Source: a virus
Reading direction: 5' to 3' (one strand)
DNA length: 64,000 nt
Virus record (IMG/VR): IMGVR_UViG_3300027822_000297
Shown here: positions 36,632 through 64,000 of the stretch, one piece after another
Position numbering within the stretch: position 1 is the stretch's first letter
How the letters are laid out: each line of letters starts with the position of its first letter
Position numbers and translations under genes: made by a program
Notes under the pieces: model-generated
The model's database searches: none
What the model was told of the DNA's origin: nothing
What the model saw: the letters and a program-made list of their open reading frames with translations, nothing else

Positions 36632-36635
36632 TATT

Positions 36636-37941: not shown

Positions 37942-37957
37942 ATATTGGAGTAAAAAT

Positions 37958-42398: not shown

Positions 42399-42400
42399 TT

Positions 42401-47797: not shown

Positions 47798-47799
47798 TT

Positions 47800-48675: not shown

Positions 48676-48698
48676 TTATTAAATAATAGGAGAAAAAA

Positions 48699-49073
48699 AT
48701 GGCAATAGTATATTCGGCAGCAGCAGAGACGGCGCGTATGACTGCCGTAAGAGATGAAATTGATAATGGTGGTGCTGGAAAGATACAAATAGGCACTGCG
48801 CTTATGGTTACTGTATTAGCAGAAATTGATCTAGATTCCGTCTGTGGAACAGTTACTGCTGATGTTCTTACCTTATCATCATTTCCAAAGTCTGATATTA
48901 ACGCTAATGCGACAGGGACAGCGGCGGAAGCAAGGATTATTAATGGCGGGGCGACTGATGTAGTCACTGCTATTTCAGTCGGTACAACAGGATCAGATAT
49001 TAATCTTGATTCAGTTAATATTACAGCAGGACAAACATTAACATTGGACTCGTTTACACTTACTCATTTTTAA
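48699..49073 (+). CDS. Small virion (tail) structural protein
   Basis: A.ATGTAAEARI...VGTTGSD.NL.S..I..GQ..T pattern common at phage tail ends. Confidence 0.7.
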   Translation: MAIVYSAAAETARMTAVRDEIDNGGAGKIQIGTALMVTVLAEIDLDSVCGTVTADVLTLSSFPKSDINANATGTAAEARIINGGATDVVTAISVGTTGSDINLDSVNITAGQTLTLDSFTLTHF

Positions 49074-49253
49074 ATGAATTAAAAGTATTGAATATAACAA
49101 CGCCAAAAATTTCAAGATAGATGTTGAATAAAGATAAATTAATACATAGTAATGAGTTTGTTTCATCTTCATTGTAATTTCTTTCTATACTACAAAAGTC
49201 AATAAGTGGGCCGCCATCGACTAAGCTAATTTCTATAAAACAAAATCGTGTAA

Positions 49254-49751
49254 TCATTTATATCCTTTAAATAGCCGTCTCCAGACCCAAGGTGGCATTG
49301 GATTTTTTTTATGCCATAAACCCATACCTTGTTTGCGTGCCTTTTCTTCAGCTTCGTAATATGATTTATCTCTAGCAAACCTAGGTTCTACCCAGGCAGC
49401 ACCAACGCTAACCATTCGTTTATTAATATCTTGACCTTTTAAATAAAGCCTTACTACATCGCGGTCATACGTTCTTTTGCCTGTATGCTTTAATGTAACG
49501 ATTTTTTGATGGATTAAGGTTTGTAATGTTCGTTTACTGAATTGACCGTATTGTTGACCTATCTCTGGCGCATCTATATCAGCTAAACGTATTTCTGATT
49601 TTTTATTATTTCTGCTTAACACAATAGCGCCATCACCATCTATTACACGTACAACGGCATATTCTTTGGGCCGGTTTATAAACGATATTGCGTCCCATGA
49701 CCAAAATAAAAGAACTAAAGCCATTATGGAAAAGATTATTATTGTTTGCAT
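49254..49751 (-). CDS. Thermonuclease (SNase) family secreted nuclease
   Basis: VVRVIDGD, IRLADIDAPE..Q.YG, YDR, A....GLW....P.PPW.WR. Confidence 0.92.
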   Translation of the reverse strand: MQTIIIFSIMALVLLFWSWDAISFINRPKEYAVVRVIDGDGAIVLSRNNKKSEIRLADIDAPEIGQQYGQFSKRTLQTLIHQKIVTLKHTGKRTYDRDVVRLYLKGQDINKRMVSVGAAWVEPRFARDKSYYEAEEKARKQGMGLWHKKNPMPPWVWRRLFKGYK

Positions 49752-50023
49752 TAGGTGTCGAAATCTAAGGCTTTAGTGCGCATAATATAATGAATATCTT
49801 CAATGATGTTTCTGTAATTATCATTTATAGATAATGCCAATTTGTCTTCACCAAGGCCATTGTTTGCTAAATAATCATCGTAATTATCTAATGCGTATTG
49901 AATAACCAGGGATTCATCATCAGTAAGCGCTTTTCCATTAACAGATATATTAATTTTATTTATCAATTTTCTCTTCTCTCCAGTTTTGATAGGTAGATGG
50001 ATCAAATAAATGAAGTGTGTCAT
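49751..50023 (-). CDS. Hypothetical protein (start uncertain)
   Basis: ORF coupled to the nuclease. Confidence 0.45.
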   Translation of the reverse strand: MTHFIYLIHLPIKTGEKRKLINKINISVNGKALTDDESLVIQYALDNYDDYLANNGLGEDKLALSINDNYRNIIEDIHYIMRTKALDFDT

Positions 50024-50456
50024 TATCTGCGTGATCTTCCCATTCTCTACGAAATTTTAATGCTTGTTGAAAAGCAAGTAAATCCATTTCTCCATCGTAT
50101 TTGTTAATATTGCAAACTCTAAATGTTTTACCGTATTTTTTGCCTTTATGATCAATCCAGCTAACACCATAAACGAGATAAGTTAAATTTTTCCTATTAT
50201 CATGGCTATGCGTTTTACATACGCCCAATACGCCAGTTGATTTGTTATTTGTCGCAGCTTTTATAGCTCTTCTTTTGGTGTTTTTTAAAATAACTAACAT
50301 TTGGTCACGCCAGTTATTTGCAGCCTTAAATGCGTTTTTACGGCCACCCCATGATTTATATGCAAAGTAACGGGTGAATTGCTTATGTCTTCTGACAATC
50401 TTTACTTGAAATCCGTTTTTGTCTGGTTCGCTTATATTTTTTCTTGATAAACCCAT
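49956..50456 (-). CDS. Tandem AP2-domain DNA-binding protein
   Basis: FQVKI.R.....YF.....GG...A...A..WRD and NKSTGV.GV......W.D..GK...K.F. Confidence 0.7.
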   Translation of the reverse strand: MGLSRKNISEPDKNGFQVKIVRRHKQFTRYFAYKSWGGRKNAFKAANNWRDQMLVILKNTKRRAIKAATNNKSTGVLGVCKTHSHDNRKNLTYLVYGVSWIDHKGKKYGKTFRVCNINKYDGEMDLLAFQQALKFRREWEDHADNDTLHLFDPSTYQNWREEKIDK

Positions 50457-50652
50457 TATTACAAATGCAATTCTCTTCTAATTTGTCTATTTCCGGCAGC
50501 CATAACCATAAAAGTATTGATAAACCAAATAAAACATCCTGATCATTGAACCCATCCCAATAAAGCCCAGCAAATGACAACGCTGTAACAATAATTCTAT
50601 TACCGTGCTTTATTAGAAACTTAATTCTTGTGTTATCATGGTTAGCGGCCAT
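50383..50652 (-). CDS. Small membrane protein
   Basis: AAACGAGGG RBS; two hydrophobic segments. Confidence 0.5.
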   Translation of the reverse strand: MAANHDNTRIKFLIKHGNRIIVTALSFAGLYWDGFNDQDVLFGLSILLWLWLPEIDKLEENCICNNGFIKKKYKRTRQKRISSKDCQKT

Positions 50653-50941
50653 ATGTTCCCTCGTTTCACATGTGGCTAGAGCCTCTGGTTTTAATTAATC
50701 AGGGGCTTTTTAATTTAAAAAATATTTAATCCATATAAAAATATACTTTCCGATAGTGTAAATAATATCCTTGGTTATCAAGGCAAGTAGCATAGCTATA
50801 AAAATATCAGCGCCGGTCATTCTGTTTTCCTTTTTAATGCATTAAGTTCTTTGATTCTGCACATAACTACAATAATCATTCCTATAATGCTGATAATGCC
50901 AGGAAACCAGTTATCCCCGAATAATAATGATATAGAACCAC

Positions 50942-51064
50942 CTAAACCAACAAGCCTCGGTTCCATGCGGCCCTATATTTAATGTTTTGTTGACTTGCAT
51001 ATTCACTCAATTTCATGTAGCTAGTTATTTAAGTAAGTTGACTTATATTACTATAGTATAGTCC
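50942..51064 (-). mobile_element. IS607-family left-end/TnpA remnant
   Basis: Own translation 51016-50942 MKLSEYASQQNIKYRAAWNRGLLV*, matching the IS607 TnpA N-terminal HTH. Confidence 0.6.
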
Positions 51065-51074
51065 ACGTGTCAAT

Positions 51075-51263
51075 TTAAAGACCAAGTTCTTTTCCTAGTA
51101 ATTCTAAACCATAAAGTATGGCTTGTTTTTTATTGCCTTTAAATGCTTTAAAAACAGCATCAGTTTGCTTTTTTTGTTCTTCAGTTAAATAAACCGGTGT
51201 TAATTGAGGCATCCCTCTACGCCTTATTTTGTAGCTCTGTTCTGCTGTTAAATTATCTTTCAT
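51075..51263 (-). CDS. Small DNA-binding protein (ribbon-helix-helix-like)
   Basis: R..QL.PVYLTEEQK...KKQAIL.GL. Confidence 0.55.
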   Translation of the reverse strand: MKDNLTAEQSYKIRRRGMPQLTPVYLTEEQKKQTDAVFKAFKGNKKQAILYGLELLGKELGL

Positions 51264-51296
51264 AAGTGTAGGGCGGCATTACACCGCCCGATGTCC

Positions 51297-52847
51297 TTAA
51301 CTTTCGTTTGCTAGTTTAATTACCTCAGATTTAGATAAAGCCCTATTATATAACCTTATGTAACTTATTTTGCCTTTGAAGGGGCGTAATGATACTTTTG
51401 TTGGACTGGCACCAACCCAAACAGGCGCTTTACTTTGCGATATATTTCCTGATTTACGCATGTTTCCTACTTGTTTACCATCTTTAAACAGAAACATAGC
51501 GCTACCGTTATAAACAGCGGCAAAGTGAATCCATTTATTATTACTTAAGTTGCCTGATGAGGCAATTAATGTATGAACCTTGCCGTTTGTTTTAAGCCGG
51601 AATCGTAATCGTGTTTTTGAACCGACACTAACAGTGCTTACCATCCAGTTATGTTGATTTTCTTTAACTCCACTTGCTTTAGATATAATCCTACAATCCC
51701 GATGTTTACAGTTTTTTAGGTTTTCTGAATTAAACCAGCCAGAAATAGACATAGTTTTCCCACTTAAATTGAATCGTCCTGCATCCATATAGTCGTTTCT
51801 ACCGCCAAAACGAACACCATTACCCATAATCCTAGCGCCATTTATTAACTTTCCGTTACGGCCATTTCCTGAAAGGTCTTTAATTGTTCTCCCGCTTCCT
51901 TGCATATCCCAAAATGCGAATAGTTTATTGTTGCTAATTGGTGATTTAATTTTAGGTTTAGGTTTATTACCTGTTATGGTTATAACTTTTGGTGTAGATG
52001 AGGTTTTAGGTTTTGTAGTAACTTTAGGCTTGCTTGATGTTTGTGTTGGTTTATTTTGTGTAGGTTGTACTTTACCTTTTGATGTTGAGCTTACAACAGA
52101 ATAACCGTTTGAACCCGCCGCTATTTTAATATTATCAATAAAAAGTTGACGACGATTTGAGTCCGTAGTCTTTCTTCCCTTTTTCCAGTCTTTTTTATAA
52201 ACCCCCATCTTAAAGTAAGGTGCCCTCATAGCCTTACCACAGCCATCTGTTTTGGGTGAGTTAGGCCCGGTAACCTTACCCAGTTTTACACCGTCTTTCC
52301 ATGCTTCGATAAAACCATCACCGCCAGATGATATCTTGAAATGGACAACAATATTTAACCATTTTTTCTTTTCTATGGGACCTTTCCAAAGAACTTTTTT
52401 TCCATAAGTATAAAATATTGCCTCGTCATTTCCCGAACGCATTAAAAATGGAGCTGTCTTTGCTGGGAACCAGACGGTGCAATCTAGAGCCCAGGAGCTG
52501 GCTGCTGTATGTATCTGAAAAGGAGCTAATTCCAGGCTTTTGTCTTTTTTCCAATCTTCATACCGGTAATCAAAACTAAACCAATATTCTTTACCAAATT
52601 CAAAATGACCACTACCATCTTTCATAGTAGCTTCTGTACGATACGGTGTGCGCATACTTCGGGTTAATGTGAAATTACCTGAATATTTTCCACTTGCTTT
52701 TGGTGATGTGGCTACAGTAGGCCAATTCCCAGAGCCTCTTAATCCACTCACATTACCTGTTTCGAAGCCGTTATTGTATATAAGTGTTGCTGCATTTAAA
52801 TTTCCAATAAGAAATATTGAAAATAAACTAAAAATAATTTGTTTCAT
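51297..52847 (-). CDS. Secreted polysaccharide-lyase-like protein with a LamG domain
   Basis: Signal peptide; RTE, EYWFSF, QIH, W..IVVH...S....G.IE.W.DG, PYFKMGVY; Thr/Lys/Pro linker; W.HFAAVYNG...F.DG LamG. Confidence 0.8.
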   Translation of the reverse strand: MKQIIFSLFSIFLIGNLNAATLIYNNGFETGNVSGLRGSGNWPTVATSPKASGKYSGNFTLTRSMRTPYRTEATMKDGSGHFEFGKEYWFSFDYRYEDWKKDKSLELAPFQIHTAASSWALDCTVWFPAKTAPFLMRSGNDEAIFYTYGKKVLWKGPIEKKKWLNIVVHFKISSGGDGFIEAWKDGVKLGKVTGPNSPKTDGCGKAMRAPYFKMGVYKKDWKKGRKTTDSNRRQLFIDNIKIAAGSNGYSVVSSTSKGKVQPTQNKPTQTSSKPKVTTKPKTSSTPKVITITGNKPKPKIKSPISNNKLFAFWDMQGSGRTIKDLSGNGRNGKLINGARIMGNGVRFGGRNDYMDAGRFNLSGKTMSISGWFNSENLKNCKHRDCRIISKASGVKENQHNWMVSTVSVGSKTRLRFRLKTNGKVHTLIASSGNLSNNKWIHFAAVYNGSAMFLFKDGKQVGNMRKSGNISQSKAPVWVGASPTKVSLRPFKGKISYIRLYNRALSKSEVIKLANES

Positions 52848-52908
52848 AAATTTACCTTTGTTAATATTACAGTAGTAATATAACACAAGAGTAATTAAAG
52901 TCTATAAA

Positions 52909-54039
52909 TTATCTTTCTGGTGCTTTACTTAATTCTTTATCAACTAATTTAATATTGGAAATGTCTTTATTTTGTACAACTTTGTTTATTTGTATATTCA
53001 TCACATCCCTTACAACTTTATCTTGAGATTTTGGGTTGATATATTTTTCTGCATAAGCTTTTATAGCTTTTTCATGACTTATTAGTGCTTTGAGTTGGGG
53101 TTCTGATTTAGCTATAGATTCTCTATCGTGTGAATTTAGTTGAGTTCTTATTTCCTTTTCTCGTTGACCATCAATTGAAGTTTTTTTTTGAACTTTTTCC
53201 GTTGGTTGGCTTACACTGGGTTTTTTTTCTTCGTATTTGTTTGTTTTCTCATTTTTTTCAATAGTATTTTCAGGTTTTAAGGATTTTAAGTCTTCTTTAC
53301 TTGGAATATGGCCGCTAACTTCCATTCCTCTTGATTTTGCTTCCCGCCAGACATTAGACCTAAATTCTTTTGTTCCTTGAATATTAATAGATGTAACACC
53401 CTGTGAATCAAGAAGTTTTATCATATCTTTATGAGCTGTTATATTACTAGACTTAGTTGTTAATTTACTGCCATGATCCCTAAAAGCAACTTTCTGGTTA
53501 TGTCCTGCCCATCTATATTGATTTTTTTGATCAACGACATATCGTTTATTAAAATTATCATCTAAATCATGCGCTTTATTTTCATCAATTTCGATATGTT
53601 TGATTTCAAATTCAGGTTTACTTGTTTCATGATTTTTGTTTTTTAGTTTTTTAGCCTCTTCTACAACCTTGTCGTGATGCTCAATGTCTTGTCTATGTTC
53701 TGATGATAGTGATTCAGATTTATCTTTAATATTATTTATTTTGTTTGTGAATTTATCATCATTACTAAACTCAATCTTAACGCCTTTATATGAATCACTA
53801 GTTGCCTTAGTGTCACTTTTAGATTTATTTTTTAACGAGGCTTCAATGATTTTTTCATTTTGTTCAATTCGTTCCTTTCGTGATAAATCAACATTCTTTT
53901 CAGATTTAAGCTGATCGGGTATGTAGTTAGAAACTTGATTGGGATTACTATTGTTTCGTGTTGAAGGCGGAACTAGCGTTGTATTCCTAGGCGGTTGCTC
54001 TTGATTTAAAGCATCAAGACTATCATTTTGTTCAGCCAT
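52909..54039 (-). CDS. LPD7 (large polyvalent protein domain 7) protein
   Basis: AFRD.GSKL.T......DM..L....G...I.I.GT.EFR..VW.EA..RG.EV.G. Confidence 0.75.
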   Translation of the reverse strand: MAEQNDSLDALNQEQPPRNTTLVPPSTRNNSNPNQVSNYIPDQLKSEKNVDLSRKERIEQNEKIIEASLKNKSKSDTKATSDSYKGVKIEFSNDDKFTNKINNIKDKSESLSSEHRQDIEHHDKVVEEAKKLKNKNHETSKPEFEIKHIEIDENKAHDLDDNFNKRYVVDQKNQYRWAGHNQKVAFRDHGSKLTTKSSNITAHKDMIKLLDSQGVTSINIQGTKEFRSNVWREAKSRGMEVSGHIPSKEDLKSLKPENTIEKNEKTNKYEEKKPSVSQPTEKVQKKTSIDGQREKEIRTQLNSHDRESIAKSEPQLKALISHEKAIKAYAEKYINPKSQDKVVRDVMNIQINKVVQNKDISNIKLVDKELSKAPER

Positions 54040-54160
54040 TACAGTTCTCCAATCGATTTCAAATATTCAATAGCTATTTTCATTGATTCTTCATCAGATA
54101 AAACTTTTTGGTCTTCATCGAAGTGATCATTAAACCATTGTGTAAAAAGAAAATTAGTAT

Positions 54161-55933
54161 TCATGCCATTTCTCCAATTGCATTTAAATATTGTTCAGCA
54201 CAAGCGATACTTTCATCATCACTTAAAACCCTAACTTTATTGTATATAGGCATTTCAAGATCATTTATATCAACTTCTATTGTTTTCATTTTGGCTTTTA
54301 TTTCTAAAGTTTGTTTAACTTCTAATAAAGGTATTTTAGGCGGTGGAAATTCATTATTTTTTAAGCGTGGATCGGTGTACCAGAAAATCCGATCAGCATA
54401 AATAGCTTTAAGCCCTTTTAGGAAAATGAGACATTTATCTGGTGGCATTTCCTTGATTTCTTGAGGCAACATTAATGGTCTTTTTGTCTCAGATATATTT
54501 TCGTGTTTAGGGAAAATACCAGACCAAGCTCTATTGGTTGATTTTTGTTCAATTGTTATTGTTCCAAGGTCTTCTGATAATTTATTGGCTGTTTTTGTGT
54601 TATTTGGTGTTAAATACCCTTTAATATCACAATTATCTTCTATATGTTCTGCAAATTGTTTATAGACGGCATATAATTGGGCTGTTCCTTGTGCGACAAG
54701 CATTAATTGAATTCCATACCCAGCTATAAACTCAATTTTTCTTGCCACTGTTTCCATGTAGCCAACAGAAGTAAATTCATCCATCATAAACAAACAATTA
54801 TGTTTGTATTTTGGGTCTCTGTCTTTGGGTACTTTTAAATTTAAATCAATAGCCATTTGAAAGAATAAATTAACCATTGGGCCTAGTTCAACTAATGAGG
54901 CTGGTGGAATGGCAACGTAAATAGACATTTTTTTATATTTAATATCTCTCAAATCAAAAGAACTATTTGATGTGGCCGCATCTATAATTGGGTTGGCAAA
55001 TATATTCAATGTTGAAGCAAGCTGTTCTTGAACGCCACCCCTTGTTTTCTCTGGTAAATTAATAAAAGAATAAAGGTTCATTTTGCAAATAGGATCAAGA
55101 ATATCTTCATGTTCTTCAATCATATCTTTTAAATATTCGTTTGTTTTTTGTTCGGTATGAAGCATTCTAAATATTTGACCAAAAGAACATGTTAATGCAG
55201 GGATGTCTTTTGCCATTAATGCTAGGCCTTCAAATAGCTTTCTGGCTCCACCCGTCCAGATTGGATCACCGCCAGGCGGTGTTGGTGCTAAGAAGTTACT
55301 CACTTTTTGAAGGAAACTAATTCTGTTTGCATTGTCCTCTGGCATGTAGTCGAAAACATTAAAACAATCGGAATGCTTATCCTCAGCGATGAAATTAAGA
55401 AAATGTATGTCTTGCCCCATACGCTTTCTAAACCCTGCTGTTTTGTAAAAATTTTCCTCTTTTATATCAATGCTAATTATTGATCCCAGCCAAGTGAAAA
55501 ATATAGGAACAACCCAACTTACACCCTTACCTGCTCTTGTTGGTGCTTTTATTAATATATGATAATCACCATCAACAATGAGCTTTAATTTACCTAAATA
55601 ACCTAAGAATATACCTTGTACATTTTTTTTATATCGCTTAATGAATTCCCAGCCATAAGCAAAACGCGCTGAGCCATGTAATTCGTATTTATTACGCCCA
55701 ATAGCTATTAATACAGCAGTTAACGGCACTAAACCTACAAGGTGAGAGATAATTGCTTTGAAATGAATTTCTTTGCTTGACGAGAGAAAACTATAAAGGA
55801 TTGGATTAAAAAACCAAGCGCTATCTATTGATAATAAAATTTTAAAAAGTAAGCCCGCGATAACGAAATGAATAAGTGACGTGGCAATTATTAAGTTGCG
55901 TGGCCTATGTTTTTCAAGCGCGTCTAATGACAC
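54161..55933 (-). CDS. virD4: Type IV coupling protein VirD4/TraG
   Basis: HILIKAPTRAGKG, DIKEEN, FMMDEF, AGYGI, S.DLG.IT, RPLM.PQE. Confidence 0.95.
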   Translation of the reverse strand: MSLDALEKHRPRNLIIATSLIHFVIAGLLFKILLSIDSAWFFNPILYSFLSSSKEIHFKAIISHLVGLVPLTAVLIAIGRNKYELHGSARFAYGWEFIKRYKKNVQGIFLGYLGKLKLIVDGDYHILIKAPTRAGKGVSWVVPIFFTWLGSIISIDIKEENFYKTAGFRKRMGQDIHFLNFIAEDKHSDCFNVFDYMPEDNANRISFLQKVSNFLAPTPPGGDPIWTGGARKLFEGLALMAKDIPALTCSFGQIFRMLHTEQKTNEYLKDMIEEHEDILDPICKMNLYSFINLPEKTRGGVQEQLASTLNIFANPIIDAATSNSSFDLRDIKYKKMSIYVAIPPASLVELGPMVNLFFQMAIDLNLKVPKDRDPKYKHNCLFMMDEFTSVGYMETVARKIEFIAGYGIQLMLVAQGTAQLYAVYKQFAEHIEDNCDIKGYLTPNNTKTANKLSEDLGTITIEQKSTNRAWSGIFPKHENISETKRPLMLPQEIKEMPPDKCLIFLKGLKAIYADRIFWYTDPRLKNNEFPPPKIPLLEVKQTLEIKAKMKTIEVDINDLEMPIYNKVRVLSDDESIACAEQYLNAIGEMA

Positions 55934-56915
55934 TTTCTAACCCCCATTTAGAACCATGTTTTCCGCAATGCATGATAATATCAATGGTTTTTCTGCAATA
56001 ATCATTAACATCTTCTTTTTTTAAATTACTTCCAGCAGGTGACATTTTTATCATCGTAACCAATCGATCATAGACGTGTTCAGCAGAATTAGTATGTAAG
56101 CTTGTTATTGCCCCGTTATGGCCTGTATTAGTGGCGTTCAGATAATCAAAAGCTTCAGAACCTCTTAGCTCACTTAGCAATATTCTATCGGGTCTTAAAC
56201 GAAGGCAACATTTAATAAGTTCGGCAAAAGTTACCGGTTCTTTCCCAGTTGCTTTCTGGCTGGTTAATAAATTAACTATATTTCTTTTTTTATCAATTTT
56301 ATCAACTAAAACTTCCCTTGCATCTTCGATGGTTATTAGTCGTTCATGATGATTAATATAGTCAATTAGGCAATTAGTGAATGTTGTTTTGCCTGCACCA
56401 GTACTTCCAGAAACAATAATAGTTTTTTTTCCTTTAACTGCCGCAATCATAAAATTAGGCCAATCATTTCGTTTTTGATAAAAGTCTAACTTATCATCTG
56501 TCTCTGATCGTTCTTCAATGTGAGCCATTTCATTAACATGATCAAAAAACCCCTTTTCATAATAATCATCCAAAGTGTATTTTTTGGCAGCAGGTTTTCT
56601 GATGCAAATCACATATTGTTGTAAATCACATGCGGGAGGTATAACAACTTGAACACGCTCACCTGATGGGAAGGTTGCAGATAAAATAGGATTATTACTG
56701 TTTAATGTTTGATTTGTGTAATTTGCTGTAAGTATTGCCCCTTTTTTTAAGAATTCATGCGTAAAAACTTTATCTTTGTCGTTGTATCTCTCTATAACGC
56801 CATTTGTTTCAATAAAAACATCATGAGGCCCATTAATCATAACCTCATTAACATTATCTTGAGCTAAAATATCCTCTAGAACACCATTCTTCCAAATGTC
56901 GAGCATCCTTGACAT
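55914..56915 (-). CDS. virB11: T4SS ATPase VirB11
   Basis: NEVMIN.P, SGSTGAGKTT, TIEDARE, LRLRPDRI..SELRG, TGH.G..TSLH. Confidence 0.95.
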   Translation of the reverse strand: MSRMLDIWKNGVLEDILAQDNVNEVMINGPHDVFIETNGVIERYNDKDKVFTHEFLKKGAILTANYTNQTLNSNNPILSATFPSGERVQVVIPPACDLQQYVICIRKPAAKKYTLDDYYEKGFFDHVNEMAHIEERSETDDKLDFYQKRNDWPNFMIAAVKGKKTIIVSGSTGAGKTTFTNCLIDYINHHERLITIEDAREVLVDKIDKKRNIVNLLTSQKATGKEPVTFAELIKCCLRLRPDRILLSELRGSEAFDYLNATNTGHNGAITSLHTNSAEHVYDRLVTMIKMSPAGSNLKKEDVNDYCRKTIDIIMHCGKHGSKWGLESVIRRA

Positions 56916-57724
56916 TATTTAACTCCTATAACAAAAACTTCTGATAAATTAATTTGAATAACTTTTCCAGATCCATTTGTAACTGAACTTTCATCATAAA
57001 GCGTTACTTTTTCAATATTGCCAATATCGTTTGTTATTCCTAAAATTGGCGTGAGTTTTTTTCTTTCCTGTCTTACCCGTGTATCAATTCCTCCCTTAAG
57101 TTTTTTTAAGTATTCTTTTAATAACGGCCTTGTTACCCCTTTTTCAACTAGCCTTTCAGCAATCTTTGGTTTTATGCTGTATATCTTTTCAAGGTCATCG
57201 GCTATTGAGATTGCCGTTATATTTCCTTTTTTACATAGCGCTTTAAATTTATCATCTGTTGAATGAATCTTAAGGTGTCTTGATACCCAACTTGAATCAT
57301 AATTAACGATTTTTGCTAATTCATTATTATTTAATGGTTCATTATTGCTTGCATTGTAATGCTCTTGAATAAGCTTTAGTTGCCCTCCTATCTCAAATAT
57401 TGTGAGATTTTCACGGCGCATATTTTCTGAAAAGGTGATAAGTGGATTGTCATTTTTAATTACACAATCTATCGTATCCAACTCAGCCAGCTTAGCCGCA
57501 CGCCAACGCCTTTCACCGGCGGTTATATAATAAATGCCATTTTCATCAGCCTCAGTAACAGCTATTGGCTGAATCTGTCCAATTTCAGGATTTAAAAATT
57601 CATCAGCTAATTCTCTAAGGTTTGTAAATGTTTTTCTACCTTGCTCTCTGGATTTAATTTTATTAATAGGTAATGTTATATAATTCTTATTCTCTTCGGA
57701 TAAATCTAAGTCTAATTTAAGCAT
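56915..57724 (-). CDS. parB: Partition protein ParB
   Basis: GQIQPIAV, ITAGERRWRAA, EN.RRENL, HTH. Confidence 0.9.
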   Translation of the reverse strand: MLKLDLDLSEENKNYITLPINKIKSREQGRKTFTNLRELADEFLNPEIGQIQPIAVTEADENGIYYITAGERRWRAAKLAELDTIDCVIKNDNPLITFSENMRRENLTIFEIGGQLKLIQEHYNASNNEPLNNNELAKIVNYDSSWVSRHLKIHSTDDKFKALCKKGNITAISIADDLEKIYSIKPKIAERLVEKGVTRPLLKEYLKKLKGGIDTRVRQERKKLTPILGITNDIGNIEKVTLYDESSVTNGSGKVIQINLSEVFVIGVK

Positions 57725-58463
57725 TTGTTAACTCTTTTTCGTTTATCTTTTCTACCATCGCATTCATAACACCTATTAATTGATGTGATGCTTGTTTTAT
57801 GTTGCCGTATTGTGGGGTTATATTCCATAATGGGGTATGTCCATTCATTACTGATGTATAAGGTGTTCTTTGTGAAAGAAACGGTAAAATTTTGTTAGGA
57901 TAGTTAGAAATAAGCTGGCCTAATGCTATCTTGTGTTCTTTTGATAACCCACTAACAAAGTTAGGCATTAGGCCATACACATCTGTATGTGATGTTTTAT
58001 TAACTTTTTTTATTGTTGAAATTACGTTACTAACTCCATCTAATGCAAAATCACCCATATTAATAGGGATAAAAGCGCCATCTGATAATGACAATACAGC
58101 AAAAGTTAATTTTGATAGAGTGGGTGCCGTATCAAAAATTATATATTCATAACCTATTTCTTTTAATAATTCCTTGTTGGAATAAATAATCTCTCGATAA
58201 ATAGTGTTTACAGCTAAAATGCTTCTTGTTGAGGGAAAAACAAGTAAGTTAGTTAGCTTAATGTTATTTAGTTCTTTAGTGAAAAAATCGATAGCTAATG
58301 TTTTCGACAAATAAGGTTTAAAGAATCGCGTTCCATTCCCTTGCCCATCTGCATCTATAAAAACAACCTTATTTCCTAGCTCTGTTAAGCGGTGTGCTAA
58401 ATGTGTGGCATAAAATGTTTTCCCAACACCACCTTTTTCATTTGTAATTGTGATACCTTTCAT
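57717..58463 (-). CDS. parA: Partition ATPase ParA
   Basis: NEKGGVGKT, IDADGQGN, IFDTAP. Confidence 0.92.
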   Translation of the reverse strand: MKGITITNEKGGVGKTFYATHLAHRLTELGNKVVFIDADGQGNGTRFFKPYLSKTLAIDFFTKELNNIKLTNLLVFPSTRSILAVNTIYREIIYSNKELLKEIGYEYIIFDTAPTLSKLTFAVLSLSDGAFIPINMGDFALDGVSNVISTIKKVNKTSHTDVYGLMPNFVSGLSKEHKIALGQLISNYPNKILPFLSQRTPYTSVMNGHTPLWNITPQYGNIKQASHQLIGVMNAMVEKINEKELTNA

Positions 58464-59602
58464 TCCAGTTCATCCCTATATATATGCGTGAAATCAAGCT
58501 TCCTGGCTACAAAAACATTTATTCTTGCTCCATGATGAGCGTGGCCTGTTGGTTTTATTTTTAGGGCTTGCTCTAAGGCCATTTCAGATGATCGGTTAAA
58601 ATTAGCTTTGACATCTTGAATAGCTTGGGAATTGCCATCTGTTACCACACCAGCAGCAGCGGAAACGCCAGCATTAATAACTGATAATAATATTGAAGAA
58701 CCGAAACGTTGCCAAAAATGACTATCAATAAACATATGCTGTCCTGACCGTCCTAAAGGTCCAACACTTGGTGAATTAATATTAATAACATGCCCATCTT
58801 TGGTCATAACGGTTTCCCAAACAATAAATAATCTATTCACACCGAAATCAATACCACTTGCGTATTGTCCTATTAATCGGCTGCCACCAGGAATTAAGAC
58901 ACGCTGTCCATCCTTAGCGCGTTCTGAATAAACGTCACTACTTACTATTGCTCGTATTTTTCCAGGCAAAGACGAATGTATGGAAAAATCCAATATTGCC
59001 GGTATAATTTTCCCAGGTAACATTTTCATGTCTAAATGTTTTTCTAAGTAAGCGAAAGATTCATCTAATTTCTTAACATTTAATCTATCCTCTAATGTTG
59101 GCTCAGGCTCTTCTTGCGTTAGTGATTTAACTCCACTTAAGACTTCATTCATGTATTTACCTCGATCAAAACCTGCTGTGTGTTGACTTGGTGGGACTGG
59201 ATAACGATTGTCCTTTTTTTCTTTTTTATTTGTCCCCTTACTAACCTGTTTGTATTTATTTTTAAATTCCTCATAAACTATAGGTTTTTTTTTATGCTCA
59301 TGTTCCACATCTTTAGATTCCATGTCTTTTTCAATTTCCACAAGAGTTTGTTTCGCAGGTTCTTGTATATATTGACTAAACAAGGTGTTTTCTTCTACAA
59401 CGTCTAAAAACTCATCCTTTTTGCCTTTATTTTCTTTTTTATTACCATCACCACCCATGTTGAATAACACATAAATAAAAAGCAAAACTAAAAGAAAAAC
59501 AATAATATTTTTATTAAACCAATTTTTCTTCTCTTTTTGAACATTTCTGTCTTTTGGTACATAAATATCATCTTCGTTGTTTTCATTATCAATGAATGCC
59601 AT
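58460..59602 (-). CDS. virB10: T4SS core protein VirB10
   Basis: G.IIPA.L...I.S.LPG...A.V..DVY, IP.GS.L.G.Y, R.F.VW, GR.G, FW.RFG..IL. Confidence 0.93.
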   Translation of the reverse strand: MAFIDNENNEDDIYVPKDRNVQKEKKNWFNKNIIVFLLVLLFIYVLFNMGGDGNKKENKGKKDEFLDVVEENTLFSQYIQEPAKQTLVEIEKDMESKDVEHEHKKKPIVYEEFKNKYKQVSKGTNKKEKKDNRYPVPPSQHTAGFDRGKYMNEVLSGVKSLTQEEPEPTLEDRLNVKKLDESFAYLEKHLDMKMLPGKIIPAILDFSIHSSLPGKIRAIVSSDVYSERAKDGQRVLIPGGSRLIGQYASGIDFGVNRLFIVWETVMTKDGHVININSPSVGPLGRSGQHMFIDSHFWQRFGSSILLSVINAGVSAAAGVVTDGNSQAIQDVKANFNRSSEMALEQALKIKPTGHAHHGARINVFVARKLDFTHIYRDELE

Positions 59603-59605
59603 TAG

Positions 59606-60418
59606 TTATCCTTTTTCTTTAATAAAAGATTTAGGCTTTTTAAAACCATTATTAATAAGACAAACAGCTTCATCCCCTCTTCGTAATACAAATTTAGGTT
59701 TAATTGCTTCAATAACTAGATAACCACAGTCGTCTTGATGGTAATTAACTATTGTTTCGATGTTATCTTTACCCACAGCTTTTATGGATGAAAATTCACC
59801 ATCAATTAATAAATAAGTAAATTTATCGTCATTAAACATAAAGGTCGGTCTTAAATTCATTGACCCTTCAGCATCATATTCAAAATTAACGTTATCTAAG
59901 TTTGGAGCGCGGCAAGTTTTTAATTCTTTTCTTTTTCCCTTTTTTGCCAGCTTTTTTTCTTTTTTTCTTTCTTTAAGTTCGGCTCTAAGCCTAGCTTCGC
60001 GCGCAAAAGCAATCTCGTCACCAGGGTAATCAAATTTAAGCCGGTATGTTAAGTCTTTAGGTATTTTGCTTTTTTTGCCATGCGGCGGCTTAAAAGTGAA
60101 ATAATATGATCTTAGATTAGTATCAAACGTCATGTTTGTTGCTTCGCCTTTAGTTCTAGGCCAAACAATAACTTTATTTTTTTTGCTATCAAAATAAAAA
60201 ACACCTTCCATACCAAATTTAATAGTATCTTTTTGAACAATCTCATAAGGTGCAGTTATTATGTGTATGAAATATCCAAAGTGGCTCGATAATGGATAGG
60301 TTTCATTTTCATCATAAGTCACAACCTTTAGGCGAGAATCAGACAATTGATCCATTAGTTGCCTTTCAGCATAAACAGGTAATGAAAATATCAGTAAGAT
60401 AATTATATTTTTAATCAT
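59606..60418 (-). CDS. virB9: T4SS core protein VirB9
   Basis: D.R.K...YD, TN....T..RSY, NF.Y, P..MFND.KFTY, VNY...VIE...LR.G.E.VC. Confidence 0.9.
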   Translation of the reverse strand: MIKNIIILLIFSLPVYAERQLMDQLSDSRLKVVTYDENETYPLSSHFGYFIHIITAPYEIVQKDTIKFGMEGVFYFDSKKNKVIVWPRTKGEATNMTFDTNLRSYYFTFKPPHGKKSKIPKDLTYRLKFDYPGDEIAFAREARLRAELKERKKEKKLAKKGKRKELKTCRAPNLDNVNFEYDAEGSMNLRPTFMFNDDKFTYLLIDGEFSSIKAVGKDNIETIVNYHQDDCGYLVIEAIKPKFVLRRGDEAVCLINNGFKKPKSFIKEKG

Positions 60419-61158
60419 GTTCTTTTCTCGTTTTCTGCGTTTTGAATGTAACTTTCAACCATAAAACCATGTGGATTTCTTTCACGTCTTTCCGCATTAG
60501 TAGGTATTGATTTGTACTTATAAGTTAATGTTATTTTTATTGGTATATCAGGTTTAATTTTTAACTTTTCTGTTTTAGGTGTGTTCGGTGTCAGGATTGC
60601 GTGAGTAATAACAGTAAACTTATCTTCACTTAATGGAGTCATGGTTACTATTGATACATTTATTTGGCCTAATGCCTTGATAATGCTTGCTGGGCCTTTG
60701 TCATTTTTGGGATCAACATAATTAATATATTGTCTAGCTATTCTGGAATTTGACATTGCTGCAACACATTTTAAATTATCATTTCTTTTAGCTAAGGCAT
60801 ACCCTTCATAACATTCAATAAAGCGTCTTACATCAGCTTTTAAGAAAAGTTCTTGCTGCGAAATAGATAATGGCTCGCCTACTCTGTAAAGCGTCTTTAA
60901 TGCTCTATAACCTGTTCTTGAATCAATTTCTTCAACTTGAATATAATGATTAGATTTAGAAGCCATGAAGATAACACCGATAACAGAGATGGTTGTTACT
61001 ACACCATAAATAATTTCTCTTATTTTTGATCGTTTTAGGCGATCCGATAAATTTTTAAAATTATTCTCTTCCCATCGATTGCCTAGATCGACTAATTCTT
61101 GAGCAGATATTTCTCTTTGTGGTATTTTTTCTTTAAGCCGCCGTATTTTTTCAAGCAT
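60415..61158 (-). CDS. virB8: T4SS protein VirB8
   Basis: Single TM; FI..YEGY, R..NP.GF.V.SY; start moved to ATG 61158. Confidence 0.88.
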   Translation of the reverse strand: MLEKIRRLKEKIPQREISAQELVDLGNRWEENNFKNLSDRLKRSKIREIIYGVVTTISVIGVIFMASKSNHYIQVEEIDSRTGYRALKTLYRVGEPLSISQQELFLKADVRRFIECYEGYALAKRNDNLKCVAAMSNSRIARQYINYVDPKNDKGPASIIKALGQINVSIVTMTPLSEDKFTVITHAILTPNTPKTEKLKIKPDIPIKITLTYKYKSIPTNAERRERNPHGFMVESYIQNAENEKRT

Positions 61159-61279
61159 GTGTTGGACCGATTGGTTGCTTGTTATAACAAGAGCAAGGTG
61201 ATTCTGGGTCTTTAAGATCAGAATCAAATACAGCACAGCCTGATAAAAGTAATATTGCTAGTAATAAAATAGGTTTCAT
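61151..61279 (-). CDS. virB7: VirB7-like lipoprotein (42 aa)
   Basis: Own translation MKPILLLAILLLSGCAVF...; LSGC lipobox; position before virB8. Confidence 0.7.
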   Translation of the reverse strand: MKPILLLAILLLSGCAVFDSDLKDPESPCSCYNKQPIGPTHA

Positions 61280-61322
61280 AAGTATCCTTTTGTACAGTTG
61301 TAATAAATAAAGTTAAATTTTT

Positions 61323-61799
61323 TTAGTTTCTATGGATTAGGTGGTTGTTAATTTGATTATTTTGATCTTCAATTTTCTGTTGTTCGTCATTTATTAAATT
61401 ATGAAATCCATTTTGATAAAACATTACTTCTTGTGATGTCCACTCGTCAAACCCTGTTTCATTAAAACGCCTTTTATTCTTATATTGATCTAGGCGATAT
61501 TCTCTATCAAAATATTTAAGCTCAGCGCGTTTCTCAAGCCATCCATAAAAAGGGCTTATCCAGCGTAACAACAAATCAAATAAGTAAAGTAAGAGTCCTG
61601 ATGCGGCACTAATAACGCTATGCTCCAGAGCTTTCATATAAAGAATTTCGTTCCCACCAGATACAGCAAATAATAAACAAATAATTGCGCCTATACTAAA
61701 TAATATGATTCCTATTTTTAATAAAAAGGTTATCGGGTATTTAATAATGTAAAGAGGTATTGAAAAAAACCATCTTAAAATGATAAAAATAAACCTCAT
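61323..61799 (-). CDS. Inner-membrane protein of unknown function within the vir operon
   Basis: Two or three TM segments; coupled to virB6. Confidence 0.65.
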   Translation of the reverse strand: MRFIFIILRWFFSIPLYIIKYPITFLLKIGIILFSIGAIICLLFAVSGGNEILYMKALEHSVISAASGLLLYLFDLLLRWISPFYGWLEKRAELKYFDREYRLDQYKNKRRFNETGFDEWTSQEVMFYQNGFHNLINDEQQKIEDQNNQINNHLIHRN

Positions 61800-62710
61800 T
61801 TCCTTATTGTTCCCTGTGGAATTCTACTCATAACACCACCACCAAGACTTGCAGCGCCAGCACCAAAACGCTTACCCATATCATAAGCATTTCGTCTCGC
61901 TCTATATTCATCACCTAAACTAAAACCACCGGCAATACCCGCTGTCATTTGGGCAACTTGTTTTAATGCAACCCAATTTATAAAAGCTAGAATCATTACT
62001 ACAAGTGATTGTTTCAACATTGTCCATACATCAGGTGTATTAATCACATCAATTGCAATAGGTAACGTTACCATTGCCACGCCATAAGCAAACATAGGTA
62101 AAATTGCGTAATTTAATGTTTGTTGAATCCAAGTATCAAACATTCTTCCTGTAAAGCCAAATAGCGCCATAAATATAAATATTGGTCCAAATCCTAATAG
62201 AACAGAGAGCATTATTTTACTTAATATAATAATGACAAGTAGCCCCATAACGCCAACTATGGTTGAAACAAGCAATACAACGCCGATTATAATGCCTGAT
62301 CCCCAGCTTGAGGTTTGAAAAGCAAATGCTGTCGCATCTAAGCCTCTATCAAGATAATCACCGAGCAATGTATTCATTGTCGTTGGATCGTTTCCACCTA
62401 ACGATCCCATTGCGGAACCTGCAATTTCATTAGGTACTTCTGTAAATAACCCCACAAGTATTGAATAGTGGCTCCAATGCGTTGTAATGTAAATAATCAC
62501 TGTTGCTTTAATAAAGAACTGGAATAATTCATGCGCTTTATTTGGCGTTAATTTATAAATCCAAGCTATTCCGTAAGCAATTATCGCTAATGATATTAAT
62601 GTTTGCATTTGACTTGAAAGCCAAGCGCTAACACCACCAAAAGCTTGTTGGATATAAGTAACAACGGCGGCATCAATTAACGCCATGATGTAATCAACAG
62701 GATTTCCCAT
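61796..62710 (-). CDS. virB6: T4SS protein VirB6
   Basis: Polytopic; GPIFI....F..T...F..W. Confidence 0.9.
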   Translation of the reverse strand: MGNPVDYIMALIDAAVVTYIQQAFGGVSAWLSSQMQTLISLAIIAYGIAWIYKLTPNKAHELFQFFIKATVIIYITTHWSHYSILVGLFTEVPNEIAGSAMGSLGGNDPTTMNTLLGDYLDRGLDATAFAFQTSSWGSGIIIGVVLLVSTIVGVMGLLVIIILSKIMLSVLLGFGPIFIFMALFGFTGRMFDTWIQQTLNYAILPMFAYGVAMVTLPIAIDVINTPDVWTMLKQSLVVMILAFINWVALKQVAQMTAGIAGGFSLGDEYRARRNAYDMGKRFGAGAASLGGGVMSRIPQGTIRK

Positions 62711-62711
62711 A

Positions 62712-63539
62712 TTAGAATTCCACGGTTGGCCTTAAATAAGCTTGATTATCAATACCAATTCGTCTCATTTTATCAACCTCAGTATCATTGACTCTTTTTA
62801 ATAATGCGGCAGACAATCTATTACCCTCGTTGATATTAACTGAAATATCACCTAAAAAAGCATTACGTAAATCATCTTTCTCTCTTGGATGATAAGCAAC
62901 ATCAATACGATCAATTAGTTGGTTTGTTGTATCGATATGTTCTTCAACTTGATCATAAGAAGTCTCTGCCAATGCCGAATAAGCTTTGTTTAAATTAAAA
63001 TCTTCTTCATAAACATCTTTAGTATGTATAGATGATGGAGGCAATGTTCCTAATGATGGATGTACTTCAAAAACACGACTTGGCAAATAAAGTCGATTTC
63101 CTGTTTGGAATCTATCTGCTGCCCGAGTTAATCTCCCATAAGAACCCCATATTGTGTGATGTAATCCATCAGCCTGGCCAACAAGATCATTAAATCGCTC
63201 AGGTGCGTAGTTACGTAATTCACGACTCCCTAACGCATTCATAATGCTTCCCCAGCCTGGATTCCCAGTTATAGCCTCGTAGTGATAAACAGCTTGATTA
63301 TAAATTCTTAATGCTTCTACAGCGGTTTTATATGTTTGAATAGCAGTCTGAATTTGTTCATTCTGAATGACTGCTTGATAGCCTGTTTGAATGGTTGTTT
63401 CTGCTGTTGTGTAAGCAGTTTCTACCGCATTTAATATATCTTGTGGTATGTCAAAGTAATCAAAAACAGGTAAAAAAGTTGCATTTGCATTAGTTTGATA
63501 AAAAACAAGTAATAGTATAAGTAATCTTTTTTTAAACAT
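62712..63539 (-). CDS. virB5: T4SS minor pilin VirB5-like
   Basis: Signal peptide; helical; Y.AITG..G.G, LI..ID..Y..REK.DL. Confidence 0.75.
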   Translation of the reverse strand: MFKKRLLILLLVFYQTNANATFLPVFDYFDIPQDILNAVETAYTTAETTIQTGYQAVIQNEQIQTAIQTYKTAVEALRIYNQAVYHYEAITGNPGWGSIMNALGSRELRNYAPERFNDLVGQADGLHHTIWGSYGRLTRAADRFQTGNRLYLPSRVFEVHPSLGTLPPSSIHTKDVYEEDFNLNKAYSALAETSYDQVEEHIDTTNQLIDRIDVAYHPREKDDLRNAFLGDISVNINEGNRLSAALLKRVNDTEVDKMRRIGIDNQAYLRPTVEF

Positions 63540-64000
63540 TTTTTGCTTCCTCCAGATAAGGTTTTTCCCATTTATCATCCCCATACTTTTCAACACATTC
63601 TTCAAATATATGAATTAGGTTTTTTCCTGCTGAAGCATAAGGAAGATATTCTTTTATTTTCTCTAAATTAAAATTATGAACAGATGATTTATTTCCTTTT
63701 TTTAATACAAATCGCCTTGATCCGCGCGTTGATGTCTTTATAATATTAAATTCTTTTCTTGTTGTTTTAAATCGCTTGTAATCTTCATATTCTGCCTTAG
63801 GATTAGATAAAAATATTGATGTACCAATTTGTTCTACAATGGTTTTAGCAATTTTTGAATCGATAGCATCAGAAGGTGATTGACTAGTAAAAATATACAT
63901 AATATTTTTATCCCTATCCATTTTTAATCCTTTTTTCATTTTATTGACGAAATAATCATCTTCCAACGTTTGATGAAATTCTTCAAAAACAATCATACTT
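63532..64000 (-). CDS. virB4: T4SS ATPase VirB4, C-terminal part
   Basis: FEEFH Walker B region, F.SQSPSDA, IFL.NPKA..EDY, T..EF.II. Confidence 0.9.
   Translation of the reverse strand, partial: SMIVFEEFHQTLEDDYFVNKMKKGLKMDRDKNIMYIFTSQSPSDAIDSKIAKTIVEQIGTSIFLSNPKAEYEDYKRFKTTRKEFNIIKTSTRGSRRFVLKKGNKSSVHNFNLEKIKEYLPYASAGKNLIHIFEECVEKYGDDKWEKPYLEEAKNV

Follow-up and report, generated by a model that had tools for sequence, protein, structure and literature searches.

We show that, in a 64,000-nucleotide stretch of viral DNA (hereafter the window), a tailed-phage genome is physically linked to a VirB/VirD4 type IV secretion system (T4SS) with embedded parA-parB genes, that the genes on both sides are intact, and that this linkage is kept across deep divergence, over 64 kb that hold no recombinase. 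The reading we favour, with modest confidence, is that phage and T4SS/ParAB blocks form one mobile element, which at least three deeply diverged lineages have inherited as a whole and which is most likely a plasmid-prophage. Two of the three lineages, the window and its nearest phage relative (JGI contig Ga0256839_1000289, hereafter R; 64,555 bp, 61.6 kb covered), were read as sequence; in the third (T), co-location is deduced from contig records. A co-inherited hybrid of phage and conjugative plasmid, probably a phage-plasmid, is the best reading overall, and the hybrid lineage appears stable, as the pairing recurs in relatives. A 2025 review noted that an element combining phage-plasmid and conjugative plasmid machinery had not yet been found.

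The phage side of the window runs from a leftward replication operon, through early and accessory genes, to a packaging, head and tail module.

1-2400, - strand, leftward replication operon (PHROGs)
2-352, - strand, third replication-operon gene, running off the window start
404-979, - strand, helicase-loader-like gene (phrog_2289, weak)
976-1977, - strand, lambda-O/DnaD-like initiator (phrog_2514, 16167, 345)
1450-1627, 12-bp iterons inside the initiator gene (iteron families D3/D4)
3600-25000, + strand, early and accessory phage genes (Pfam)
4847-5782, + strand, RecT (Pfam)
5769-6554, + strand, YqaJ exonuclease (Pfam)
6568-6966, + strand, SSB (Pfam)
9109-9825, + strand, Rha (Pfam)
17614-18273, + strand, ParB-N protein (Pfam)
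18260-19033, + strand, Mom (Pfam)
19166-19241, + strand, tRNA-Glu (tRNA search)
20074-20409, + strand, Bro-N (Pfam)
24542-24961, + strand, endolysin candidate (phrog_894, 7e-10, weak)
29474-49073, + strand, packaging/head/tail module (PHROGs; TerS to tail at 30.7-49.1 kb)
31206-32381, + strand, TerL (PHROGs)
32383-33792, + strand, portal (PHROGs)
34640-35392, + strand, scaffold (PHROGs)
35479-36489, + strand, major capsid protein, MCP (PHROGs)
39690-42398, + strand, tape measure (PHROGs)

According to PHROGs, the module holds a ParB-methyltransferase, TerS, TerL, portal, minor head protein, scaffold, MCP and connectors, followed by tail tube, tape measure, distal tail and fibre proteins; its last tail gene ends at 49073 and matches phrog_3758. 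The tailed-phage gene set that characterizes phage-plasmids is hence present for packaging, head and tail, with a weakly supported endolysin; holin and spanin were not identified among the window's phage genes. Two large proteins encoded at 25317-28948 were considered as relaxases and rejected, as they match nothing in PDB, Pfam or PHROGs and have viral hypothetical proteins as protein-atlas neighbours.

The rightmost part of the window is occupied by an MPF_T-type T4SS on the opposite strand.

54161-64000, - strand, MPF_T-type T4SS with embedded partition genes (Pfam)
51297-52886, - strand, secreted polysaccharide-lyase and LamG protein (PF14099, 1.7e-26; PF13385, 5.6e-21)
52909-54039, - strand, LPD7-domain protein (PF18821, 1.6e-14)
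54161-55933, - strand, VirD4 (PF02534, 1.6e-92; TraG-D_C, 3e-26)
55914-56915, - strand, VirB11 (Pfam)
56915-57724, - strand, ParB with KorB domain (PF02195, PF08535)
57717-58463, - strand, ParA (PF13614, 5e-28)
58460-59602, - strand, VirB10 (Pfam)
59606-60418, - strand, VirB9 (Pfam)
60415-61236, - strand, VirB8 (Pfam)
61796-62710, - strand, VirB6 (Pfam)
62712-63605, - strand, VirB5 (Pfam)
63532-64000, - strand, VirB4 C-terminus, running off the window end (45% identical to the 657-aa VirB4 of R)

In order of transcription, the intact and contiguous ORFs encode VirB4 (C-terminus), VirB5, VirB6, a 158-aa membrane protein, VirB8, VirB9, VirB10, ParA, ParB, VirB11 and VirD4, with parA-parB sitting between virB10 and virB11. 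The Walker A/B residues of VirD4 are invariant in its alignment, and the deviant Walker A motif of ParA (KGGVGKT) is intact. Both the VirB4 ATPase (PF03135 at 9e-24 in R's homolog) and the type IV coupling protein that the MPF_T class requires are present, as are intact channel genes B5, B6, B8, B9, B10 and B11; B2/B3 (B1/B7) are expected past the window end. The polysaccharide-lyase/LamG gene, whose signal peptide begins at an internal Met, and the LPD7 gene form the distal part of the transfer operon (51297-54039). The pairing of virD4 with a downstream LPD7 gene recurs in Xanthomonas albilineans plasmIII, in R and in the short contig L038. Every element named in the preliminary description, which had a tailed-phage gene set converging on an intact virB4-B11/virD4 operon, was thus recovered with Pfam and PHROGs. 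Maintenance genes are represented by ParA and ParB(KorB), and replication genes by the lambda-O/DnaD-like type with iterons; no plasmid-type Rep occurs within the 64-kb window, nor did we find repeated palindromes there as parS/KorB operator candidates. We detected no relaxase or oriT among the window ORFs or in 61.6 kb of R, with 10.2 kb and 2.9 kb, respectively, lying outside the coverage. The earlier proposal of a possible "conjugative phage-plasmid" consequently holds for the phage-T4SS synteny, which recurs in relatives, while its first word draws on the T4SS type, the relaxase being out of sight.

Between the last tail gene and the transfer operon lies a compact junction.

49254-50666, - strand, four-gene cluster facing the tail end
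49254-49751, - strand, secreted or membrane SNase-type nuclease (PF00565, 4.8e-19)
49751-50023, - strand, 90-aa ORF
49956-50456, - strand, predicted AP2-like DNA-binding protein
50383-50652, - strand, 89-aa membrane ORF with AAACGAGG leader
50678-51296, - strand, junction region
50678-50709, + strand, terminator
50710-50820 and 50817-50966, - strand, two tiny membrane ORFs
51073-51045, - strand, strong promoter TTGACA-17-TAATAT
51075-51263, - strand, 62-aa ribbon-helix-helix-like ORF (by eye; no Pfam match)
51268-51290, GC hairpin ending the T4SS operon

The motif AAACGAGG occurs in eight copies (1.13 expected), seven of them at 3-20 kb on the + strand. The eighth, on the - strand at 50659-50666, precedes the ATG at 50652 by 7 nt, in agreement with the phage-type leader noticed earlier beyond the junction. 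A promoter box, AAAATAACTTGCATTTAT, is shared among phage genes, confined to 3-19 kb and absent from the T4SS block. Phage-type and plasmid-type genes interdigitate at this junction: going from the T4SS operon towards the SNase gene, one meets the phage-type leader and the AP2-like gene on the way. Among 5.8 billion proteins the AP2-like family counts only six members, and three of these share a contig with members of this MCP clade and this VirD4 clade (in one contig, by deduced co-location). In R, the AP2-like homolog is phage-internal and overlaps the integrase gene, the SNase homolog stands at the end of the T4SS block, and the integrase occupies the slot matching the window's 50678-51296 region. 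No integrase or recombinase was found among all window ORFs of at least 180 aa (Pfam and/or PHROGs), R's integrase had no tblastn match in the window, and neither a CI repressor nor a housekeeping or chromosomal gene occurs in the window's 64 kb. As for att-like repeats, 1-3.6 kb and 49-51.3 kb share only chance-level A/T-rich repeats, and the junctions of R (61.6 kb covered) likewise show neither att repeats nor housekeeping genes. These results uphold the initial observation that no integrase, att site or housekeeping gene separates the blocks, and the hallmarks of an integrative conjugative element (ICE), i.e., a border integrase, att direct repeats and chromosomal flanks, were not seen in the window.

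By exact look-up, a single JGI contig of 74,191 bp carries window proteins that span from Rep (at 1 kb) to VirB6 (at 62.7 kb), which effectively excludes misassembly and chance adjacency. An independent Logan/ENA assembly yielded three contigs (27,037, 17,753 and 27,295 bp) carrying markers at 9 kb, at 37-39 kb and VirD4, with a total of 72,085 bp, near the 74,191 bp of the JGI assembly. The base composition of the blocks, judged similar by eye at the outset, is indeed so, the phage and T4SS sides having a GC of 0.347 and 0.334, respectively. Tetranucleotide frequencies of phage and T4SS blocks correlate at 0.976 within the window and 0.978 within R, and homologous blocks across the two contigs correlate lower (0.942, 0.921).

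A search for relatives with the same phage-T4SS synteny, as suggested in the preliminary description, was positive in one contig that was read (R) and, by deduction, in a second (T). R is 75%, 56%, 58% and 58% identical to the window in MCP, TerL, portal and tape measure, respectively, and 45-77% across the packaging, head and tail proteins. Its T4SS ORFs, all intact, run VirB4-B5-B6-145aa-B8-B9-B10-ParA-ParB-B11-VirD4-LPD7-171aa-SNase, with parA-parB between virB10 and virB11 as in the window, at 29-55% identity (VirD4 42%). Two R ORFs of 200 and 331 aa beside an SNF2 helicase were rejected as relaxases, as no HUH-type motif was seen by eye. Contig L038 keeps the order ParB-VirB11-VirD4-LPD7 over the part covered. 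In lineage T, an MCP (P0143), a VirD4 (P0130) and an AP2-like protein (P0264) are 68%, 46% and 59% identical to the window's, and we infer that they lie together from each being recorded on an 11,459-bp JGI contig. Pairwise identities among the three lineages are star-like (MCP 68-75%, VirD4 40-46%, AP2-like 53-59%). Wherever an MCP of at least 68% identity has a usable contig, that contig also carries a member of this VirD4 clade; identity falls to 55% in the MCPs that come next. In window and R alike, all structural and T4SS ORFs keep their full length despite 25-70% amino-acid divergence, a pattern implying purifying selection on both halves. The T4SS block adjoins the MCP gene in R (probably also in T) vs the tail end in the window, and this differing position could reflect independent fusions. 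Neither att duplications around the phage alone nor relatives with a single block were seen; the apparent lack of a T4SS in the IMG/VR relative was an artefact of provirus trimming. Elsewhere, megablast of both window halves against phages and plasmids gave no match. Peptide patterns of the window's VirD4 matched nothing in collections of viral, genome and metagenome sequences, nor did a tail-tube pattern in genome contigs; the window's own contig is in none of these collections. An AP2-like scan of viral contigs was likewise without a match. The VirD4/VirB11 homologs that GenBank phage records contain are distant (≤37% identity, mostly unannotated faecal virome contigs), as are the VirD4 homologs of five IMG/VR contigs (L039-L043; ≤32%).

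The main rival to the co-inherited hybrid is a prophage in a small conjugative plasmid, which we consider rather unlikely. On this view, a ~25-30 kb MPF_T plasmid would host a temperate phage whose virions, after excision or replication in situ, take up no more than the ~46-51 kb of phage DNA. Conjugation of the plasmid would spread the phage between cells, and a preference of this phage family for such plasmids as targets would make the association recur or persist. PLSDB contains relatives of the T4SS on MOBP/MPF_T plasmids of 25-51 kb that keep the virB2-11/virD4/LPD7 order, the phage-only parts (35-51 kb) are in line with the genome sizes of related phages, and conjugative plasmids are described as prophage vehicles in the available part of PMC12934698. 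R further carries, inside its phage part, a tyrosine integrase, a LexA-type CI and Cro, on which grounds it looks like an integrative temperate phage, and the phage-side junction differs between window and R. Against this, the window has no recombinase for excision, att-like repeats are absent at the junctions of both contigs, and phage-type genes are interleaved with plasmid-type ones at the window junction. Moreover, R's integrase and the presumed adjacent attP lie inside the phage map, away from the junction, and that map is broken between MCP and connectors, which is not a usual attP site.

A chromosomal tandem, in which a prophage and an ICE accreted as islands at one site, seems improbable to us. 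Phage-ICE tandems exist in Streptococcus, according to the available part of PMC13651849, one VirD4 clade member (P0007) sits on a 398-kb (398,136-bp) contig, and IMG/VR classed R as "provirus", trimming off the T4SS/ParAB block as "host". Yet that label follows from IMG/VR scoring the T4SS as non-viral; no chromosomal or housekeeping gene occurs in 64 kb of window or 61.6 kb of R, neither an integrase nor an att repeat stands at the junctions, the gene order and the ParA/ParB(KorB-domain) pair are of small-plasmid type, and the Logan contigs do not reach beyond the JGI contig's size. Chance adjacency of two islands is very unlikely given the recurring pairing. Less probable than the chromosomal tandem is that one half is a decaying passenger (a prophage grounded after integrase loss, or a repurposed or inactive T4SS) in an element with no dual transmission. 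The empty integrase slot, the weak endolysin call with no holin or spanin, and the unseen relaxase would suit such decay, but the full-length ORFs of both halves in both contigs speak against it. Finally, window and R are both metagenome contigs, and a chimeric assembly of phage and plasmid had been raised as an alternative; the pairing of homologous phage with homologous T4SS in separate contigs at 40-75% identity leaves this a negligible chance.

If the hybrid reading is right, replication in lysogeny would start at the lambda-O-type iteron origin (1.0-2.0 kb), the ParA/ParB(KorB-like) pair within the transfer operon would see to segregation, and the element would move between cells through the VirB/VirD4 (MPF_T) channel, using a relaxase/oriT presumed to lie in the 10.2 kb of the 74,191-bp contig outside the window; upon induction, siphovirus particles would be built from the 30.7-49.1 kb module. 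The plasmid state, conjugative function and virion production are thus predictions from gene content. We propose only tentatively a ~65-75 kb dual-route replicon, with plasmid upkeep and VirB/VirD4 conjugation in lysogeny and infectious siphovirus particles carrying the conjugation genes, a design that would, on the same tentative footing, be kept across an old and diversified lineage, in Gram-negative hosts of aquatic habitats. Contigs with MCP relatives at 50-55% identity measure 41-52 kb and cultured relatives have 40-50 kb; phages with related capsid proteins have genomes 15-30 kb smaller than the element. As related MCPs belong to 40-52 kb genomes, and relatives of the capsid package about 42-50 kb, capsid fit is doubtful, and a 64-74 kb genome may exceed capsid capacity.

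Phage-plasmids and conjugative plasmids are viewed as alternative ways of spreading whose trade-offs run opposite to each other (lytic burst vs contact-dependent single transfer; capsid size limit vs free cargo). If a lineage keeps both machineries intact, the use of both routes by one element, the regulation of route choice and the handling of the capsid size limit become directly testable. The treatment of R by IMG/VR also reveals a systematic blind spot: pipelines that mine for viruses remove the T4SS as "host" sequence, and hybrids of this kind would be divided by binary plasmid/virus classifiers.

Known phage-plasmids (P1, N15, SSU5 and VP882 types; reviewed in PMC12282955, PMC7969092) resemble the window, known from its genes and with a presumptive plasmid state, in joining temperate tailed-phage genes and ParA/ParB on one element, here without an integrase; they differ in having no mating-pair system, whereas the window has a VirB4-B11/VirD4 set that is kept in relatives. 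Small MOBP/MPF_T plasmids (X. albilineans plasmIII, NC_017555, 27 kb; Xylella pXF51) share the order virB2-B3-B4-B5-B6-B8-B9-B10-B11-virD4, then LPD7, with VirD4 33-35% identical to the window's. These plasmids have parA/parB at another place, a lytic transglycosylase gene after LPD7, and a MOBP relaxase/MobC. In contrast, the window has parA-parB between virB10 and virB11, polysaccharide-lyase/LamG after LPD7, no visible relaxase, and ~50 kb of phage attached. Spartinivicinus ruber plasmid pB (NZ_CP048880, 102 kb, circular) carries a distant siphovirus module (MCP 39%) and lambda-type O/P replication genes with RecT/exonuclease beside parA-parB and a plasmid rep gene, but has no T4SS, is typed non-mobilizable and bears much toxin-antitoxin and transposon cargo. 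The Streptococcus phage-ICE tandems (PMC13651849) and prophage-carrying conjugative megaplasmids (PMC12934698) likewise link a prophage to a conjugation system for potential co-transfer. As described in the available parts of these sources, the former are chromosomal, site-specific accretions with integrases and att sites, neither of which occurs at the window junction, and the latter exceed 300 kb vs a compact ~64-74 kb here. Closest in name is the E. coli hybrid plasmid p1002-1, termed a "conjugative phage-plasmid" (SegMantX preprint, 10.1101/2025.03.14.643293), in which a conjugative plasmid is fused with a phage-plasmid in one replicon. While p1002-1 is a single fusion of known E. coli plasmids, the hybrid described here occurs in three lineages (the third by deduction) diverged to 40-46% VirD4 identity, which argues that it is old and maintained.

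The ORF listing and family scans confirmed the preliminary description of a siphovirus gene set meeting a VirB/VirD4 transfer operon in the window. The features are as follows.

976-1977, leftward operon at the left end of the window: lambda-O/DnaD-like initiator; a loader-like protein lies in the same operon, which continues past the window start
To 49073, plus strand: temperate siphovirus (family scans)
Phage half, plus strand: early and accessory genes (RecT, YqaJ exonuclease, SSB, Rha, Mom, tRNA-Glu, Bro-N protein)
24542-24961, plus strand: endolysin candidate
After the early and accessory genes and before TerS, plus strand: ParB-methyltransferase
Ending at 49073, plus strand: TerS, TerL, portal, scaffold, major capsid protein (MCP), connectors, tail tube, tape measure (902 aa), distal tail/fibre proteins
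Junction (49.07-51.3 kb), opposite the last tail gene, minus strand: SNase-type nuclease, 90-aa ORF, AP2-like DNA-binding protein, 89-aa membrane ORF
49956-50456, minus strand: AP2-like protein of this cluster
Upstream of the cluster: two tiny membrane ORFs
Beyond these ORFs, minus strand: strong promoter TTGACA-17-TAATAT
Between the tiny membrane ORFs and the GC hairpin: 62-aa ribbon-helix-helix-like ORF
Next to the 62-aa ORF, at the end of the transfer operon: GC hairpin
51297-52886, minus strand: secreted polysaccharide-lyase (PF14099) and LamG protein, last gene of the transfer operon
64000 down to 51297, minus strand: unbroken transfer operon (family scans), in the order VirB4, VirB5, VirB6, 158-aa membrane protein, VirB8, VirB9, VirB10, ParA, ParB with KorB domain, VirB11, VirD4, LPD7-domain protein, polysaccharide-lyase/LamG protein

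The vir operon, previously judged intact-looking, is indeed uninterrupted, with VirB4 represented in the window by its C-terminus only. The base composition of the two halves, earlier compared by eye, is similar in numbers as well (GC 0.347 on the phage side vs 0.334 on the T4SS side; tetranucleotide usage between sides r = 0.976). Family scans of all window ORFs of at least 180 aa returned no integrase, recombinase or relaxase, and the repeat search found no att-like repeat shared by the junction and the left end of the window, in agreement with the claim that neither integrase nor att site separates the halves. The phage-type ribosome-binding site reported beyond the junction also held up: a AAACGAGG leader precedes the start codon of the 89-aa membrane ORF, and, of the 8 copies in the window (1.1 expected), the others lie only ahead of phage early genes. 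At least seven 12-bp iterons (GTACGTCCGTGG-like) occupy 1450-1627 within the O-like initiator gene, the same arrangement as in lambda, where the origin lies inside the initiator gene. We also noticed two ParB-N-domain paralogues in the phage half (17658-17957 and 29488-29787), joined by a 300-nt repeat of 72% identity; the first is a protein of 219 aa encoded upstream of mom, the second forms the N-terminal part of the ParB-methyltransferase, and both are distinct from the ParB/KorB of the transfer operon.

Exact-sequence look-ups placed the window proteins from Rep to VirB6 on one JGI/IMG contig of 74,191 bp, of which the window covers all but about 10.2 kb. The JGI VirD4 record differs from the window protein only at residue 1 (V vs M); JGI reads GTG starts literally, and therefore GTG-start proteins distinguish JGI records from those of the independent Logan/ENA assembly. 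In the latter, Rha (9 kb) lies on a 27,037-bp contig, the markers at 36.6 and 39.1 kb on a 17,753-bp contig and VirD4 on a 27,295-bp contig (72,085 bp in total). A linear tiling along the JGI contig would require the 27,295-bp contig to cross the junction, and a circular one would mean an element closed at about 74 kb. Both tilings agree with phage-T4SS contiguity, although they are only suggestive.

The sole close MCP relative in IMG/VR (75% identity) lies on a 48-kb 'provirus' without VirD4. The apparent lack of a T4SS is an artefact of provirus trimming: this record (IMGVR_UViG_3300026519_000642, here G001) corresponds to positions 2-48229 of the 64,555-bp JGI contig Ga0256839_1000289, is 100% identical to it where they overlap, and was cut at a boundary that removed an intact 16-kb T4SS/ParAB block as host DNA. 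The VirD4 search led to the same contig, which carries a member of a small clade at 40-46% identity, all other homologs being at 36% or below. The block (VirB4-B5-B6-145aa-B8-B9-B10-ParA-ParB-B11-VirD4-LPD7-171aa-SNase) converges on the phage MCP gene, and its ORFs are all intact and 29-55% identical to those of the window. The search for relatives with the same pairing thus yielded this contig and, by inference, a second case: since the records of MCP (68%), VirD4 (46%) and AP2-like protein (59%) all give a JGI contig of exactly 11,459 bp, a third lineage probably carries both halves. Beyond the relatives at 68% or more, MCP identity falls to 55%; two of these three are on contigs linked to the window's VirD4 clade, and the contig of the remaining one (72%) has just 5.2 kb, too little to assess VirD4 linkage. 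MCP, VirD4 and AP2-like protein all show a star-like pattern of pairwise identity across the three lineages, and tetranucleotide usage is closer between halves of one contig than between homologous halves of different contigs. A 3.5-kb GenBank metagenome contig keeps ParB-VirB11-VirD4-LPD7 in the window's order.

In Ga0256839_1000289, the T4SS block comes after the MCP gene, from which a conserved small ORF and a strong terminator separate it. Head genes (TerS-MCP) and connector/tail genes are thus set apart on this contig (the stretches concerned are G001 1-11058 and 46253-48228). The connectors come after an 11-kb block at the opposite contig end and have their own promoter-like region; this block encodes an SNF2 helicase as well as a PAPS-reductase/DUF3440 (IbrA-like) protein. 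Positions 11,058-46,253 give a circularly permuted complete phage map. By the tail end, a tyrosine integrase gene lies directly upstream of the AP2-like gene (G001 22340-22879, minus strand), which overlaps its 3' end, and LexA-type CI and Cro are also encoded; the window has no counterparts of integrase, CI or Cro, and its slot matching the integrase position is the phage-T4SS junction itself. This overlap makes a role as recombination directionality factor, or as regulator, possible for the AP2-like protein, whose family has six members only in a 5.8-billion-protein collection. In the relative's early region (G001 24830-25290 and 28195-28260), a cluster of direct repeats spaced 78 bp, up to 107 nt identical, bears three copies of the AAACGAGG leader that also occurs in the window phage.

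Given the differing T4SS placement and the permuted phage map, at least one rearrangement separates the two elements. SNase and AP2-like genes, which in the relative sit on the T4SS and phage sides, respectively, interleave in the window. Together with the rearrangement, this is better explained by long co-residence than by a clean insertion of recent date; independent phage-T4SS fusions in the two elements are possible. With the halves linked, their genes intact and the pairing conserved, the reading with the best support is that of a phage/conjugative-plasmid hybrid inherited as one. It would replicate from the O-type iteron origin, be partitioned by the ParAB embedded in the transfer operon, transfer via the MPF_T channel with VirD4 and form virions upon induction, all of these being predicted functions. 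The main physical objection is genome size: where capsid proteins are related, phage genomes measure 40-52 kb, vs at least 64.5 kb and 74 kb here, which implies a larger capsid, partial packaging, or packaging of the phage part alone. The last option is the rival reading of a plasmid-borne prophage. Neither the 64 kb of the window nor 61.6 kb of Ga0256839_1000289 yielded a relaxase. Virus catalogues will systematically hide elements of this hybrid kind, as the IMG/VR trimming of Ga0256839_1000289 illustrates.

The transfer gene order, with LPD7 after virD4, is shared by small MOBP/MPF_T plasmids (X. albilineans plasmIII, for example), but their transfer proteins are only 25-36% identical to those of the window and they are without its parA-parB insertion. 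In the Xanthomonas plasmid, a lytic transglycosylase takes the place of the polysaccharide-lyase/LamG protein, which has no homolog in Ga0256839_1000289 and might assist mating or infection by cutting capsule or EPS, or else be cargo. Five IMG/VR 'viral' contigs hold distant VirD4 homologs (24-32%) and may be T4SS-bearing phages or else conjugative elements wrongly called viral. A distant analogue with phage module, parAB and rep but no T4SS is Spartinivicinus ruber pB (NZ_CP048880.1), a 102-kb circular plasmid typed non-mobilizable in PLSDB, whose complete-looking siphovirus (MCP 39%) has lambda-type O/P genes, RecT/exonuclease and holins directly beside parA-parB and plasmid rep; it could be a phage-plasmid that has gone unrecognised, or else a plasmid-borne prophage. 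Among described systems, p1002-1 is a single E. coli fusion plasmid reported in a preprint (10.1101/2025.03.14.643293), and both phage-ICE tandems (PMC13651849) and prophage-bearing megaplasmids (PMC12934698) are already known.
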